Virus record (IMG/VR): IMGVR_UViG_2778261418_000001
Span: 1-14,331 of that record
Source: a virus
Taxonomy: Duplodnaviria; Heunggongvirae; Uroviricota; Caudoviricetes
Length of the DNA stretch: 14,331 nt
Strand: one strand, 5' to 3'
Under the pieces are notes generated by a model. The model was not told the origin of the DNA. It worked only from the letters and a program-made list of their open reading frames with translations, and did no database searches. Shown here one piece after another: positions 5,428 through 13,748 of this stretch (its first letter is position 1; each line of letters starts with the position of its first letter). A program made the translations under genes and the position numbers.

Positions 5428-6159
5428 TTAGTAGTCAACTACAGACCACCAGAAGATTCTTCCGATGATCTCGATATCGCTTAGATTCTTTTCTTCTTGT
5501 GGGTATTCCAGTGAGTTAAAGCTTCTAATGCTTACCTTGTCAGGCCCTGATCGAAAGAGAATCTTAATGCGTTTCCAACCGTTCTCGTTAATGGCGTAAA
5601 TCTTTCCGTCAACTATTTTCTTATCGTTGGTGTTAACAGCAACTGTTGTTCCATCAGGAATGTTTGGCTCCATGCTGTTGCCACGAGCCGGAAAACAAAC
5701 AACCCCGCTTCCATCACTGTTCGCGCCAACTCTGCGAAGGGTTGATTTGGAGAAGCGCAACATAAAGCCGTTGTGATCTTCATCAATCACCCGACCATCC
5801 CCGCATGCAAACTCAATATCTTTAAGGTAAGGAACTTCAACTTCATCACCTCTTAAAGGCGTTCCTCCATCCCATGGGTCCAAATATCCCCACGTGCTTT
5901 CATGAGGAATAGAAGATTTTGGATTATAAGGTTCAACTCCCTCATCACGCATTGGCCCAGTCCCATCGGAAAGCCATTCCGTACGAACTCCAAGCACTTT
6001 TGATATTTCAAAAAGTTTGCGCGTATTGCGTGTTTTTCCAGACGTAAGTTTCCAGACGCTTGGCTGAGACATGCCAACAGCATTGCCAAGAGAAGCCTGA
6101 GTAAACCCAGCCTGATCCATCGCGTATGTAAGCCTTTGAGAAAAAGTATCTAGTTTCAT
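5428..6159 (-). CDS. cI: CI-type prophage repressor (HTH N-domain plus LexA-like S24 autopeptidase C-domain)
   Basis: N-terminal XRE-type HTH (QASLGNAVGMSQPSVWKL). C-terminal S24 fold with the Ser motif GNSMEP and Lys in KRIK. Divergent from cro, flanked by operators; mRNA appears leaderless from pRM. Confidence 0.85.
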   Translation of the reverse strand: MKLDTFSQRLTYAMDQAGFTQASLGNAVGMSQPSVWKLTSGKTRNTRKLFEISKVLGVRTEWLSDGTGPMRDEGVEPYNPKSSIPHESTWGYLDPWDGGTPLRGDEVEVPYLKDIEFACGDGRVIDEDHNGFMLRFSKSTLRRVGANSDGSGVVCFPARGNSMEPNIPDGTTVAVNTNDKKIVDGKIYAINENGWKRIKILFRSGPDKVSIRSFNSLEYPQEEKNLSDIEIIGRIFWWSVVDY

Positions 6160-6165
6160 TCGTAC

Positions 6166-6236
6166 AACCTATAGCTACAGCTATTATTAGTCAAATACCT
6201 AAAGCTATTTACTTTCTGAATAGCTTTGGCTATTAT
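6166..6236. promoter_or_regulatory. OR region: three operators overlapping divergent pRM and pR
   Basis: Sites ATAGC-taca-GCTAT (6171-6184), ATACC-taaa-GCTAT (6195-6208), AATAGC-tttg-GCTATT (6218-6233). pR: -35 TTTACT (6208-6213), 17 bp, -10 TATTAT (6231-6236). pRM on minus: -35 TTGACT (6189-6194), 17 bp, -10 TAGGTT (6166-6171), with the cI ATG ~7 nt downstream. Confidence 0.65.
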
Positions 6237-6267
6237 TCTGATTGTGAATTCAGCAGGAGTTATTTTT

Positions 6268-6498
6268 ATGGTCAACGAGGCTATTAAAGCGGCTATTGAC
6301 TCAGTAGGAAGTCAGCAAAAGTTAGCTGATGCCTGCGGTGTTAAGCAGCCGTCTGTATGGGCTTGGTTGCATGGGAAGAAAAGGGTATCCGCTGAAAATG
6401 CCAAGCGCATTGAAATGGCTACCAATGGAAGCGTCCCTGCATACCTGATTCGCCCTGATTTATCCGCTTTGTTCCCCAATCCGAACAAAGCAGCTTAA
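6268..6498 (+). CDS. cro: Cro-like repressor (76 aa from ATG 6268)
   Basis: First gene rightward from pR. AGGAG RBS before ATG 6268. HTH QQKLADACGVKQPSVWAWLHGKK. The TTG at 6226 in the track ORF lies inside the operator. Confidence 0.75.
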   Translation: MVNEAIKAAIDSVGSQQKLADACGVKQPSVWAWLHGKKRVSAENAKRIEMATNGSVPAYLIRPDLSALFPNPNKAA

Positions 6499-6617: not shown

Positions 6618-6914
6618 ATGGAACAAACAAGTTACAGCAAACTATCACAGCGCGACGTTGATCGCGCAGAAACAGATTTACTTATCAACCTGTCAACGCT
6701 TACTCAGCGCGGTCTGGCAAAGATGATTGGCTGTCATGAATCGAAGATAAGCAGAACGGACTGGAGATTTATTGCTTCAGTCTTGTGTGCTTTCGGAATG
6801 GCATCAGACATCAGTCCGATTAGTAGGGCTTTTAAGTATGCGCTTGATGGAATCACAAAGAAAAAATCCCCGGCCGCCACCGAGGATTTTAAGCAAATTG
6901 ATATGCAATTCTGA
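6618..6914 (+). CDS. cII: CII-like transcriptional activator
   Basis: 98 aa. C-terminal KKKSPAATEDFKQIDMQF aligns with lambda CII (KKRPAATERSEQIQMEF), with the HTH centrally. Position after cro. Confidence 0.75.
   Translation: MEQTSYSKLSQRDVDRAETDLLINLSTLTQRGLAKMIGCHESKISRTDWRFIASVLCAFGMASDISPISRAFKYALDGITKKKSPAATEDFKQIDMQF
6627..6640 (-). promoter_or_regulatory. putative pRE CII-binding repeat (TTGC-N6-TTGT) inside the 5' end of cII
   Basis: Minus strand reads TTGCtgtaacTTGT. Lambda pRE has TTGC-N6-TTGC flanking its -35 in the same place and orientation. Confidence 0.35.
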
Positions 6915-6946
6915 GGGAATTACTGGATCAATCCACAGGAGTAATT

Positions 6947-7591
6947 ATGACATACGAAAATGACAAATTCCAGGTTCTGAAGAGCATGAAGGTTCCAGAT
7001 GATTTTAAATCAAATGGCTTTGTTTATGTGCTTTCGAATGAGTGCATGCCAGGAATTTATAAGATTGGGATGACTAAGCATTCACCAGAAGTTAGGGCTA
7101 AAGAAATTTCAGCCTCTACTGGCGTTCCTAAGCCATTTAAGGTGATAGCAGCCTTTCATTCAAATAATCCCGCATCAGATGAAAAACTCATTCATAAAGC
7201 CTTTGCAAAAGAGAGGCTTAGTGATAATCGAGAGTTTTTCAAGCTTGAAGATAATGATCTTTCTGAATCTCTAAATGAAATAAGGGCGCTGGTTGGCCCT
7301 GAAAGAAATGGCGAGACGGCAGAATACGCAATTTACGACTCATTCATTTCTTTTCGCCATGAAAATGAGCTTGATCTTAATGAGGAGCTTATAGAGCAAG
7401 GTCTGGGTAGTGTAGTTGGTCATCTTCCTGCGGTGAAAAATTTCCTTATTCGCGCCGGAATTGATTACGCGAAGCAACTGATAAGCAAATATAACTCATC
7501 GATAGTTATTAATACAGATGGCAGTGTGGTGATGGTTAAGTCTCTTGAAGCCCAATGCTTTGATGCGGAGGTTGGAAATGAGCCTTGCTGA
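6947..7591 (+). CDS. T5orf172 (GIY-YIG-like) domain protein; moron between cII and O
   Basis: GGAG RBS. N-terminal GFVYVLSNECMPGIYKIGMTKHSPEVRAKEI ... REFFKL matches the T5orf172/MUG113 GIY-YIG-related pattern. Lambda has cII directly followed by O. Confidence 0.65.
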   Translation: MTYENDKFQVLKSMKVPDDFKSNGFVYVLSNECMPGIYKIGMTKHSPEVRAKEISASTGVPKPFKVIAAFHSNNPASDEKLIHKAFAKERLSDNREFFKLEDNDLSESLNEIRALVGPERNGETAEYAIYDSFISFRHENELDLNEELIEQGLGSVVGHLPAVKNFLIRAGIDYAKQLISKYNSSIVINTDGSVVMVKSLEAQCFDAEVGNEPC

Positions 7592-8420
7592 AGTATTTTA
7601 CCTGCCGAAGAGTGAACCTGTTGAACAGGAGCGAAGAGTGGCTGATATCGATGATGGTTACACCAGATTCGCTAACGAGCTGCTGGAAGCTATCGCAAGT
7701 GCCGATTTAACCGCTCGCCAGTTGAAAGTTATGCTGGCCTACGTCCGGAAAACATATGGATTCAATAAGAAAACAGATCGAATAGCCGATGAGCAAATTG
7801 CTCAGTTAACAGGACTGTCAAGGCAGAATGTTAACAAGGCTAAAAAAGAACTGATTTCAATGAATTGCCTGTTTATGGATGGAAATCAAATCGGTGTAAA
7901 CAGTGAGGTATCTGCGTGGCAATTCAGCAAGTGTCTCCAAGTTAGCAACTTTGTCTCGAAGTTAGAGACAAAAAATGTCTCCAAATTAGAGACACTCAAT
8001 GTCTCGAAGTTAGAGACACACAAAAGACATTCTTTAAAGACAAAAGAAAATATTAATAAACCCCCTATATCCCCCAAAAAAGTTTCTCAGAAGTTCGACC
8101 CGCTAGAAACAGAGTTGCCTGATTGGTTATCAGCAGAAACATGGTTGTCGTGGGTTACCTATCGCAAGGAGATAGGTAAGTCGATCAAGTCTAAGCAAAG
8201 TGTCACTCAGGCTATCAACGTTCTAAGCAGAAGTCTGGAGAAGGGATATACACCTGAAGAAATTATAAACCAGAGCATCGCCAGTGGTTGGCAGGGGATT
8301 TTTGAGCCCAAGACTCCAAAGGGGAAATCTCAACCGAGGCCGCAGCATCGAGCTATGCAGGAAAACTTTGCCACCAAAGATTACGGACAAACTGAAATGC
8401 CTTCATGGGCGCAGGAGTGA
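7578..8420 (+). CDS. O: replication initiator O (lambda O family)
   Basis: N-terminal RRVADIDDGYTRFANELLEA...LKVMLAYVRKTYGFNK aligns with lambda O (RNVADLDDGYARLSNMLLEA...FKVLLAILRKTYGWNK). Iterons lie inside the ORF. Start set at ATG 7578 (GGAGG RBS) rather than 7545. Confidence 0.85.
   Translation: MSLAEVFYLPKSEPVEQERRVADIDDGYTRFANELLEAIASADLTARQLKVMLAYVRKTYGFNKKTDRIADEQIAQLTGLSRQNVNKAKKELISMNCLFMDGNQIGVNSEVSAWQFSKCLQVSNFVSKLETKNVSKLETLNVSKLETHKRHSLKTKENINKPPISPKKVSQKFDPLETELPDWLSAETWLSWVTYRKEIGKSIKSKQSVTQAINVLSRSLEKGYTPEEIINQSIASGWQGIFEPKTPKGKSQPRPQHRAMQENFATKDYGQTEMPSWAQE
7932..8075. repeat. lambdoid replication origin: four iterons plus AT-rich region inside O
   Basis: Iterons at 7932, 7952, 7976 and 8000, each ~19 bp (TGTCTCgaagttaGAGACA, with internal dyad TGTCTC/GAGACA); the first is degenerate. 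Followed by AT-rich 8020-8075. Confidence 0.8.
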
Positions 8421-8422
8421 AC

Positions 8423-9268
8423 ATGACGCTGGATGAAAAGATCTCCCAACTGGAGAAAAAACTTGCAGAATTGAGTTCTCCGCCAATTGCTATCGAGCAT
8501 ACAGCTGTAGAAATTGGCACTGGCATCTGTGAAAAACATGGTGAGTTTGAGCAGCGTAACCGTTACTCGACTGGGCCAATTAAGTTTGCCTCAAGACCTA
8601 GCGAATGCCCGGAATGCATGAGAGATGAGCTTATTCGGCTACAGGCAGAGAAGATTAAAATCGACGAAGAATCACGTAAGCGCAATGTCGAGTTTCTGTT
8701 GAATAATCTTGATATTCCTGAACGATTCAAGGGTTGCACACTACAGAACTACGAGCCAGTCAACGACGATGCAAAGAGAGTGCTCAGGGTGTGTCAGGCA
8801 TACGCCAGCAAATGGCCTGAGAGGTTACAGAAAGGCGGTGGGCTGGTTATGTGTGGAAAGCCTGGTACTGGAAAGAATCATCTTGCACTGGCTATCGCCC
8901 GGCACGCAATTACGGAACATCAAAGCTCAGCTATTTTCACAACGGCGCTGAAAATTGCCAGAGAATATAAATCAACATGGTCGAAAAACTCCACCCGCAC
9001 AGAGGATGAAGTGATCCGACAGTTCACTAAACCTGACCTGCTAATTATCGATGAGGTTGGTGTGCAGTTTGGAAGCGAGGCGGAAAAGATGATCATGTTC
9101 GAAATCATCAACACCCGCTACGAGCGCATGAAGCCAACAATCCTGATTAGCAACCAGAGCAAAGATGAACTGTCTGCATTCATTGGTGAGCGTGTTATTG
9201 ACAGGATGAATGATGGCGGCGGGTGCACTCTTGCGTTTACATGGGATAGTTACAGGAGCAGATCGTGA
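8423..9268 (+). CDS. DnaC-like helicase loader (IstB-type AAA+ ATPase) with N-terminal zinc-ribbon-like Cys motif
   Basis: Walker A GKPGTGKNHLA and Walker B LLIIDEVG. CxxH...CPEC motif near the N-terminus. AGGAG RBS before ATG 8423. Directly downstream of O. Confidence 0.85.
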   Translation: MTLDEKISQLEKKLAELSSPPIAIEHTAVEIGTGICEKHGEFEQRNRYSTGPIKFASRPSECPECMRDELIRLQAEKIKIDEESRKRNVEFLLNNLDIPERFKGCTLQNYEPVNDDAKRVLRVCQAYASKWPERLQKGGGLVMCGKPGTGKNHLALAIARHAITEHQSSAIFTTALKIAREYKSTWSKNSTRTEDEVIRQFTKPDLLIIDEVGVQFGSEAEKMIMFEIINTRYERMKPTILISNQSKDELSAFIGERVIDRMNDGGGCTLAFTWDSYRSRS

Positions 9269-9613: not shown

Positions 9614-9628
9614 GGGGAGAGGGAAGTC

Positions 9629-10069
9629 ATGAAAAAACTAACCTTTGAAATTCGATCCCCAGCACATCAGCAAAACGCTATTCACGCGGTACAGCAAATT
9701 CTTCCAGACCCAACCAAACCAATCGTAGTGACCATCCAGGAACGCAACCGCAGCTTAGACCAAAATCGGAAGCTTTGGGCTTGCTTAGGTGACGTCTCTC
9801 GTCAGGTTGAATGGCATGGTCGCTGGCTGGATGCAGAAAGCTGGAAGTGTGTGTTTACCGCAGCATTAAAGCAGCAGGACGTTGTTCCTAACCTTGCCGG
9901 GAATGGCTTTGTGGTAATAGGCCAGTCAACCAGCAGGATGCGTGTAAGCGAATTTGCGGAGCTATTAGAGCTTATACAGGCATTCGGTACAGAGCGTGGC
10001 GTTAAGTGGTCAGACGAAGCGCGACTGGCTCTCGAATGGAAAGCGCGATGGGGAGATCGGGCTGCATGA
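9629..10069 (+). CDS. ninB: NinB recombination protein
   Basis: From MKKLTFEIRSPAHQQNAIHAVQQILPDPTKP... the protein is essentially identical to lambda NinB as recalled from memory. Confidence 0.9.
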   Translation: MKKLTFEIRSPAHQQNAIHAVQQILPDPTKPIVVTIQERNRSLDQNRKLWACLGDVSRQVEWHGRWLDAESWKCVFTAALKQQDVVPNLAGNGFVVIGQSTSRMRVSEFAELLELIQAFGTERGVKWSDEARLALEWKARWGDRAA

Positions 10070-10590
10070 CTATCAAATCAAATACGCCAGCGTCAGATAG
10101 GTATCGGCTTATTGAGGATTATCTGTATTTAGACGGAGATACAGTCAGGTACAAAAAGGACTCGCTAAAACACCCCAACCACAGCCACCGGGCCGGAGAT
10201 GAAATTAAAACATCGATAAATGGATCTGGGTATAGACAGGTGTGTTTTGCAGGCATTCAGATGTTTGTTCACGTAGTTGTTTTTGCGCTGCACAACAAAA
10301 GAATGCCATTGAAAAATATTGACCATATTAACGGAAACAGGCTGGACAATTCCCCAAAAAATCTTAGGGAGGCAAGCCGGATAGCAAACAGCCGAAATCA
10401 GAAAACTAAGTGCAATAGCCGTTCTGGAATAAAAAATGTTTTATGGAACAAGCAAAAAAATAAATGGGCCGTTCAAGTGCGCACAGATTTTGGCCGGTTG
10501 CATTTTGGGTTCTATGAAGATCTTGAGCTTGCTGGTTTGGTTGCCAGTGAGGCTATCAACAAATATCACGGACAATATGCGAGGGTTTAA
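10066..10590 (+). CDS. HNH endonuclease with AP2-like DNA-binding domain (free-standing homing-endonuclease type)
   Basis: ATG 10066 overlaps the ninB stop (ATGA). HNH motif IDHINGNRLDNSPKNLR. C-terminal AP2-like WNKQKNKWAVQV...GFYEDLELAG. Inserted between ninB and the next nin gene. Confidence 0.8.
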   Translation: MTIKSNTPASDRYRLIEDYLYLDGDTVRYKKDSLKHPNHSHRAGDEIKTSINGSGYRQVCFAGIQMFVHVVVFALHNKRMPLKNIDHINGNRLDNSPKNLREASRIANSRNQKTKCNSRSGIKNVLWNKQKNKWAVQVRTDFGRLHFGFYEDLELAGLVASEAINKYHGQYARV

Positions 10591-13592: not shown

Positions 13593-13667
13593 GGGTCAGT
13601 CGTATAAAGGTCATTACGGAAGGCTGTTAACCTTCTTATCGTGGTTCGAGTCCACGCTGTCCCGCCA
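13593..13667 (+). tRNA. tRNA, anticodon GUU (Asn) by manual fold; imperfect stems
   Basis: 75 nt cloverleaf. Anticodon arm GAAGG-CTGTTAA-CCTTC, T-arm CGTGG-TTCGAGT-CCACG, 3' GCCA. One mismatch each in the acceptor and D stems, so it may be divergent or a pseudo-tRNA. Confidence 0.55.
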
Positions 13668-13672
13668 AATAT

Positions 13673-13748
13673 GCTGGTTTAGCTCCAATGGTAGAGCGGT
13701 CGCCTTGTAAGCGAATGGGTAGCGGTTCAAGTCCGTTAACCAGCACCA
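13673..13748 (+). tRNA. tRNA, anticodon UGU (Thr) by manual fold
   Basis: 76 nt. Perfect 7-bp acceptor stem (GCTGGTT/AACCAGC), D-arm GCTC-CAATGGTA-GAGC, anticodon loop CTTGTAA, T-arm AGCGG-TTCAAGT-CCGTT, ACCA 3' end. Confidence 0.7.

Follow-up and report, generated by a model that had tools for sequence, protein, structure and literature searches.

Why should a gene for a putative nuclease stand between cII and the replication initiator gene O of a lambdoid phage? The question is raised by a stretch of 14,331 nucleotides (nt), the whole of IMG/VR virus record IMGVR_UViG_2778261418_000001 (Caudoviricetes), hereafter called the window, which carries the early genes of a lambdoid prophage or phage. 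The gene in question, at positions 6947..7591, encodes a protein of 214 amino acids (aa). We tentatively read its product as an active free-standing, homing-type 'boundary' endonuclease of the GIY-YIG (T5orf172) class, placed at the junction of the immunity and replication modules, and give this reading a probability of about 0.45. We favor it because an optional gene with sharp ends occupies an ultra-conserved site beside an essential gene, because it appears to have been exchanged repeatedly among near-identical backgrounds, and because two nuclease superfamilies, T5orf172 and HNH, alternate in one slot.

An optional nuclease-family gene between cII and O

The gene, its parts, and its two neighbors are as follows.

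6618..6914, plus strand: cII, the 5' neighbor of the nuclease gene (Phage_CII, PF05269, E 2.2e-32)
6947..7591, plus strand: T5orf172/GIY-YIG-family nuclease gene, 214 aa, ATG start, TGA stop at 7589-7591
7016..7282, plus strand: nuclease domain, aa 24-112
7283..7588, plus strand: orphan acidic C-terminal domain, aa 113-214, isoelectric point (pI) 4.6, net charge -8
7578..8420, plus strand: replication initiator gene O, ATG at 7578 (Phage_rep_O, E 3.7e-36; 'replication protein' in RefSeq)

An earlier note, made from the letters of the window, had placed a T5orf172/GIY-YIG-type gene between cII and O, and the Pfam searches agree. The protein matches MUG113 (PF13455, E 4.3e-16, aa 38-111) with 59.7 bits against a cut-off of 22.3, and T5orf172 (PF10544, E 2.3e-15, aa 24-112) with 57.4 bits against a cut-off of 20; both matches are thus well above the gathering scores, and the flanking genes match Phage_CII and Phage_rep_O. 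The top fold matches of the nuclease domain are GIY-YIG nucleases, with the alpha/beta fold of that class, and RefSeq names the protein 'GIY-YIG nuclease family protein'. With both alignments, searches of PDB sequences gave no meaningful match.

The open reading frame (ORF) is a real gene, as it has about 40 full-length homologues, with 33-83% identity, in Escherichia, Klebsiella, Pectobacterium, Cronobacter, Pantoea, and Enterobacter, and as each half of the protein has a ratio of nonsynonymous to synonymous substitution rates (dN/dS) of 0.09 in comparison with a homologue of 83% identity. All 19 copies in Escherichia coli are full length. The GC content of the gene (38-41%) is barely below that of the flanks, and hence it has no clear foreign signature. 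Two overlapping frames, a minus-strand ORF at 7340..7477 and a TTG-started version of O (7545), were treated as mechanical artefacts; the start of O was set at ATG 7578 by the annotation of RefSeq relatives. In the PHROG collection, residues 1-172 match positions 275-439 of the 439-position profile phrog_8430 (E 4.8e-68), a placement suggesting that some phage relatives may have a long N-terminal extension or fusion.

Among 38 aligned homologues the invariant residues are Y27, Y38-K39-G41, R50, E53, H83, and R95-E96-F97-F98, and their order is that in which GIY-YIG nucleases carry the GIY, YIG, Arg, and Glu motifs. Judged by this order, Y27, Y38, R50, and E96 are probably the counterparts of Y6, Y17, R27, and E75 of I-TevI, and the product is predicted to be an active DNA endonuclease. 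A profile comparison (hhalign) of the family with the I-TevI catalytic domain was uninformative.

The C-terminal half (aa 113-214) is a small alpha/beta unit comprised of a helix, a long helix, a beta-hairpin, and another helix. It has no Pfam family match, and no relatives were found in sequence or fold beyond its own family. A phmmer search of 1.84 billion representatives returned, for this half, its own family and two large CARDB/Ig repeat proteins, which we rejected as repeat-inflated noise, and a word-index search with the domain yielded two fragments only. This half varies between clades, whereas the nuclease half is conserved.

Anatomy of the insertion

We compared the window with empty sites, that is, with relatives in which cII is directly followed by O. 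The elements of the junction are listed below.

6863..6890, minus strand: oop-like antisense terminator, a terminator-like stem-loop in the 3' end of cII, also present in the empty-site relative L013
6922..6952, plus strand: conserved junction ACTGGATCAATCCACAGGAGTAATTATGACA, common to empty sites (alignments with L013 and L014)
6953..7622, plus strand: carrier-specific segment of 670 nt, where empty sites have 42 nt (break points from BLAST and alignment with L013, L014, and L015)
7567..7571, plus strand: GGAGG ribosome site of O, inside the last nuclease codons (from reading the sequence)
7578..7622, plus strand: variant first 15 codons of O, MSLAEVFYLPKSEPV

In an empty site, the cII stop is followed by 32 nt and then by the ATG of O. 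Homology with the window extends on the left through ...ACTGGATCAATCCACAGGAGTnATTATGACA, which is the ribosome site and ATG of O, and begins again on the right at codon 16 of O; in each of the 28 empty genomes it is lost at exactly window position 7623. The AGGAG ribosome site (6937-6941) and the ATG (6947) of the junction thus act for O where the site is empty and for the nuclease gene in the window. Since the 670-nt cassette stands in place of 42 nt, the nuclease gene has taken the former ribosome site and ATG of O, and its last codons provide O with a new GGAGG and ATG. The first 15 residues of O change accordingly from the lambda-type MTNTAKILNFGRGNFA in empty genomes to MSLAEVFYLPKSEPV, a start found in 19 of 19 carriers and in none of the 28 empty genomes. 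The nuclease stop lies 14 nt inside O, confirming the overlap seen by the earlier note, and the overlapping stop and start codons suggest that translation of the two genes is coupled. The junction motif ACTGGATCAATCCACAGGAGTAATTATGACA also precedes the homologues from Klebsiella, Enterobacter, and Pantoea.

A Klebsiella aerogenes prophage (L004, 4634..4698) has a different arrangement. There the nuclease stop is followed by an in-frame, lambda-type O start, MNTAEILNFPGF..., which reads on into another member of the O family, whose annotated start is an ATG further along. The first ~10 codons of O thus seem to move with the junction and not with the rest of the gene.

There is no plus-strand promoter-like site 5' of the nuclease gene and no terminator after it; none was found between cII, the nuclease gene, and O. 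This would place the gene in the CI-repressed pR operon, where it should be silent in a lysogen. The earlier note had called it a moron, but in the strict sense this does not hold: the gene lacks its own promoter and terminator, relies on the former translation start of O, and is apparently coupled to O, hence it does not look like an autonomous unit.

The insertion also touches the antisense signals of cII. The empty site of L013 (2369..2478, minus strand) has a P_o-like promoter, TTGAGT-17-CATAAT with TG, whose -10 element overlaps the ATG of O and whose -35 element lies in O codons 7-9; the oop terminator is present in the 3' end of cII. In the window (6863..6952, minus strand) the terminator and TGnCATAAT are kept, the -35 element consists of nuclease codons (TGGAAT), and no promoter was called. 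As the -35 element has been replaced, the insertion may weaken the oop antisense control of cII. The oop region had no Rfam family match. In addition, a promoter-like site TCAACA-18-TAAAAT (9/12) lies at 7595..7624 on the minus strand, in the rewritten 5' end of O, and faces into the nuclease gene, which contains a weak terminator-like hairpin at 7300..7283 (minus strand). The -10 element of this site is degraded in L003, and the site may be due to chance.

Presence and absence of the cassette

The nuclease gene is rare. It was found in 19 of 5,426 complete E. coli genomes and in one of 50,697 phage records. The latter is PQ850599, from the cultured P22-like phage Bas106, in which the gene (Bas106_0049) is annotated as hypothetical. 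The O allele of the window occurs in 47 E. coli genomes, of which 19 carry the nuclease gene and 28 have cII and then O directly. Copies of the uninterrupted 80-nt cII-O junction with at least 95% identity were found at 1,812 sites of 1,355 genomes, with differing flanking cII and O alleles; hence the cassette fills ~1% of a highly conserved DNA island. About a quarter of E. coli genomes hold a prophage with a lambda-type junction. These counts bear out the suggestion of the earlier note that the gene is inserted at an otherwise invariant junction, and they show that it is not a universal feature of this position. By analogy, a conserved 80-nt junction is the kind of target that homing enzymes use.

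The cassette may have moved between closely related backgrounds. The O allele of the window differs at 2 sites from that of the empty L013 and at 8 sites from that of the carrier L039; carrier and empty O alleles are therefore intermixed, which suggests repeated gain or loss. A marker at 7633, 10 nt inside the right junction, points to at least two cross-over positions. Carriers and empty genomes have identical cII and loader proteins, and a 99%-identical cassette is found beside at least five immunity types.

Three candidates for decay of the gene were set aside. These are P0032, with its C-terminus fused to O, P0053, which retains the C-terminal domain only, and L038; the contig of L038 has many broken genes, and all three are therefore probably frameshift errors.

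A slot 5' of replication initiators

For the family as a whole we sampled the context of 97 loci from genomes, metagenomes, and IMG/VR; the relatives come from Enterobacterales phages. In 87 of the 97, an initiator-type gene starts between -53 and +12 nt from the nuclease stop. These include 28 initiators of the Phage_rep_O type, 48 from a family starting with MARSRNIKPGFF, nine of the HTH_36+DnaT type, and one with DUF1376. The MARSRNIKPGFF family has no Pfam match; we call it an initiator because it stands before P or DnaC-like loaders. Most of the other loci are cut contigs or have a distant match confined to the nuclease domain. On the upstream side there is a cII-like gene in 64 loci and a YdaT-like gene in 13. 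Thus, the slot is kept beside initiators of at least four types, in three loader contexts, and after two types of upstream gene.

The homologues form two clades. Clade A, which includes the window protein, pairs with O-type initiators. Clade B is ~35% identical to it overall, with a far more divergent C-terminal half, and pairs with the other initiator types. Clade-B relatives (L008, L018-L022, L065-L121; proteins P0029-P0040) often end in a conserved C-terminal tail, G-[IVA]-Y-G-P-x-x-P-x-[ED]-F. The tail variants ..QSDDSDIPF, ..DDSDIPF, ..PDFDDAPF, and ..VDEPIPF resemble the acidic C-terminal tip of SSB, which reads ..DDDIPF; the window protein has no such tail.

In at least 19 E. coli genomes with a MARSRNIKPGFF-type initiator, the slot between cII and the initiator is filled by an unrelated HNH endonuclease gene (PF01844, 245-266 aa). 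Two such prophages have it at the following positions, with the HNH domain at aa 33-77.

L127, 1701..2501: HNH gene in the slot
L128, 1701..2438: HNH gene in the slot

Another E. coli locus with a MARSRNIKPGFF initiator (L129) has a clade-B T5orf172 gene in the slot instead of the HNH gene.

Comparison with known systems

A literature search on GIY-YIG genes at lambdoid cII found nothing. Among the nearest known systems are the T5orf172 homing-type genes of ICP1, T5-like phages, and Plateaulakevirus (Barth, Dunham & Seed 2023, PMC10448857), which are free-standing and adjoin essential or replication genes at boundaries of genetic exchange. Like the gene described here, they are stand-alone genes beside an essential gene, encode the same nuclease domain, mark an exchange boundary between related phages, and are present sporadically. 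They differ in nearly always carrying CapR, DUF723, or DUF4397 zinc-finger modules (87%), whereas the window protein has its orphan acidic alpha/beta domain. Moreover, those genes belong to lytic phages, unlike the window gene, which is found in a temperate lambdoid phage and is apparently coupled translationally to an initiator gene.

The nuclease activity of a T5orf172 domain has been demonstrated experimentally for Odn (Gp88) of ICP1, in which mutation of the conserved Glu abolishes it (Barth et al. 2021, PMC8263062). Odn shares with the window protein the conserved catalytic Arg and Glu and a thematic link to the initiator and origin. Its targeting domain, however, is a copy of the RepA_N origin-binding domain of its target, whereas the second domain of the window protein has no similarity to O; we rejected an Odn-like chimera, as hhalign gave the C-terminal domain a probability of 1.1% against O and 0.5% against the loader.

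Enzymes of the Seg/Tev type also have an N-terminal GIY-YIG domain and a second domain in ~200-250 aa and are inserted between conserved genes. Their slots can take different nuclease families, for which the HNH gene of L127 and L128 is a parallel. In contrast to the window protein, they are basic and have NUMOD, zinc-finger, or helix-turn-helix (HTH) modules.

Finally, a related T5orf172-type nuclease domain occurs in the SNIPE/PD-Lambda-1 and PDC-S57 systems. SNIPE is a validated defense nuclease of this domain class, host-encoded and membrane-bound, with DUF4041 (PMC13190303). Proteins of the SNIPE/PD-Lambda-1 type have ~490 aa, DUF4041 included, whereas the window protein has 214 aa, no DUF4041, and a place in a repressed early operon of a phage. 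The PADLOC models match it in part: PD-Lambda-1 (E 8e-12) only at positions 354-450, and PDC-S57 (PDLC05041, E 6e-29) only at profile positions 3-93 of 212.

How the nuclease may act

Under the homing-type reading, the pR transcript would yield the nuclease at an early stage of lytic growth, immediately ahead of O, to which its translation would be coupled. A carrier phage would meet a related lambdoid genome without the cassette, by co-infection or as a resident prophage, and the enzyme would cut this rival at or near the ultra-conserved cII-O junction. Recombinational repair would then copy in the cassette, comprised of the nuclease gene, the new ribosome site, and the 15 new O codons. Cutting would also handicap the rival, and the carrier would be spared because its junction is split and its O start rewritten. 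The split junction and rewritten codons are compatible with resistance of the carrier's own allele and are not evidence for it. We infer all of these elements: the nuclease activity, the target, the homing, and the cost to rivals.

A number of observations weigh against this scheme. It is weakened by the lack of a DNA-binding module, by acidity, by limited spread, and by the absence of decayed copies. In particular, the Pfam scan found no zinc-finger, NUMOD, or HTH module in the protein, although 87% of the described phage T5orf172 homing-type genes have zinc-finger modules (PMC10448857), and the whole protein is acidic in all 38 members (pI 4.1-5.9), the nuclease half included. In E. coli the cassette goes with one O allele only and fills ~1% of the junctions, hence its spread is limited; in Bas106 and the 85%-identical relative L003, the nuclease gene and O make up one block (6922..8426). 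No degenerate copies were seen, while a purely selfish element would be expected to leave some. Moreover, ordinary homologous recombination at the conserved linker could give the same pattern, and target-specific homing alone fails to explain a slot beside at least four unrelated initiator types, which conserved lambdoid gene order can explain.

The main rival, which we regard as unlikely on balance, is an accessory nuclease that docks by its acidic C-terminal domain to the phage's own initiator or replisome and cooperates with it. Such an enzyme might process origin or fork DNA, by nicking for initiation, in the theta-to-sigma switch, or in recombination-dependent replication, and would be helpful without being essential. 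It would account for the initiator gene adjoining the nuclease stop in the 87 of 97 loci and with at least four initiator types, for the probable coupling of translation by overlapping stop and start codons, for the movement of the nuclease gene and O as a block, and for strong purifying selection with no decayed copies. An acidic protein without a DNA-binding module suggests partner-based targeting, and the clade-B tails resemble the SSB tip. Still, the gene is dispensable, since 28 genomes have the same O and loader without it; the C-terminal domain is similar to neither O nor the loader, the window protein lacks the SSB-like tail, and conserved lambdoid gene order together with tight linkage can explain the synteny without any functional link. 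The HNH nuclease in the same slot fits either explanation. More speculative, and in our opinion rather doubtful, is a functional two-gene unit of nuclease and initiator, recurring among lambdoid phages with four or more unrelated initiator types, in which the C-terminal domain (in clade B, the SSB-tip-like tail) would dock to the initiator or replisome, and the enzyme would cleave origins or forks of rivals or of its own DNA, in the latter case triggering the switch from theta to rolling-circle replication. To our knowledge, this switch has long been unexplained.

The nuclease could also serve as a weapon with no homing involved, similar to Odn, destroying the DNA of a satellite, a prophage, or a superinfecting phage during lytic growth, or countering a host defense. 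It shares its nuclease domain with Odn and with the Odn-like genes that have been proposed for coliphages (PMC8263062, PMC10448857), it is probably expressed early from pR, and its C-terminal half differs from clade to clade beside a conserved nuclease half; besides, a quarter of E. coli genomes hold a possible rival with a lambda-type junction. However, the protein has no borrowed initiator or DNA-binding domain as in Odn (hhalign probability ~1%), no target can be named, and the gene is rare, at ~1% of junctions; we think this role improbable. A prophage gene protecting the lysogen, like SNIPE/PD-Lambda-1 or PDC-S57, would explain the PADLOC matches to the nuclease domain and would agree with the validated defensive role of SNIPE (PMC13190303). 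But the match is limited to aa 21-112, there is neither DUF4041 nor any membrane part, and the gene sits in the CI-repressed pR operon with no promoter or terminator-like site of its own and with the ribosome site of O, which makes protection of the lysogen very unlikely.

At the far end is a protein that binds DNA or regulates without cutting. T5orf172 domains, where fused to Bro-N or KilA-N modules, were originally interpreted in this way, as putatively DNA-binding, and a position beside cII and oop could suit a regulator; yet the two Tyr, the Arg, and the Glu of catalytic type do not vary among 38 sequences, and the protein, which is acidic, has neither HTH nor zinc finger, so we consider a regulator highly improbable. 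The earlier note had offered a defense factor, an anti-defense factor, or a selfish nuclease. The selfish nuclease fits best of the three, in view of the sharp-ended presence and absence of the gene and the HNH nuclease in the same slot elsewhere.

Other features of the locus

The remaining features of the window have the layout of a lambdoid early region.

5428..6159, minus strand: CI-like repressor gene
6226..6498: Cro/YdaS-like gene
7929..8023: four ori-type iterons TGTCTCnAAnTTAGAGACA inside O
8423..9268, plus strand: DnaC/IstB-like helicase loader gene (IstB_IS21, E 1.8e-18; start as annotated in L002)
10006..10590, plus strand: second free-standing nuclease gene, 194 aa (HNH_3, PF13392, E 5.5e-11)
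13593..13748, plus strand: tRNA-Asn (GTT) and tRNA-Thr (TGT)

The loader gene is followed by a Ren-like gene, nin-region genes, Q, and the two tRNAs, which lie directly 3' of the Q-like antiterminator gene, as in Bas106. The second nuclease gene stands between NinB and a Dam methylase gene; in L013, NinB is followed directly by Dam, and window positions 9619-10580 have no match in that relative.

The replication genes are disrupted in some of the related prophages. In the carrier E. coli C 236-04A (L042), a 68-nt duplication in the iteron region (approximately window 7939-8006) frameshifts O. An IS2 element lies in the 5' part of O in L015, and an element of the IS3 family lies in the loader gene in L041. 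Therefore, several such prophages have a disabled replication module.

Implications

The T5orf172 domain, the general phenomenon, and the RefSeq label 'GIY-YIG nuclease family protein' are already known. What is new is the orphan acidic second domain, the exact takeover of the translation start of O, and the regular pairing of nuclease and initiator in temperate lambdoid phages, where either a T5orf172 or an HNH gene takes the slot. That a nuclease gene is strictly paired with the initiator that follows, of whichever type, is a simple regularity open to testing, and members of two unrelated nuclease families can occupy the slot. The loss of the -35 element of the oop promoter by insertion may shift the decision between lysis and lysogeny. 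The cultured carrier phage Bas106 makes these readings directly testable.

If the homing-type reading is true, the role of nuclease genes in marking, and perhaps creating, boundaries of genetic exchange would extend to temperate lambdoid phages. A T5orf172 nuclease that finds its target with no known DNA-binding module would point to a new targeting domain or to a partner protein, and the cassette would offer a mechanistic handle on lambdoid mosaicism at the classic junction of the immunity and replication modules.
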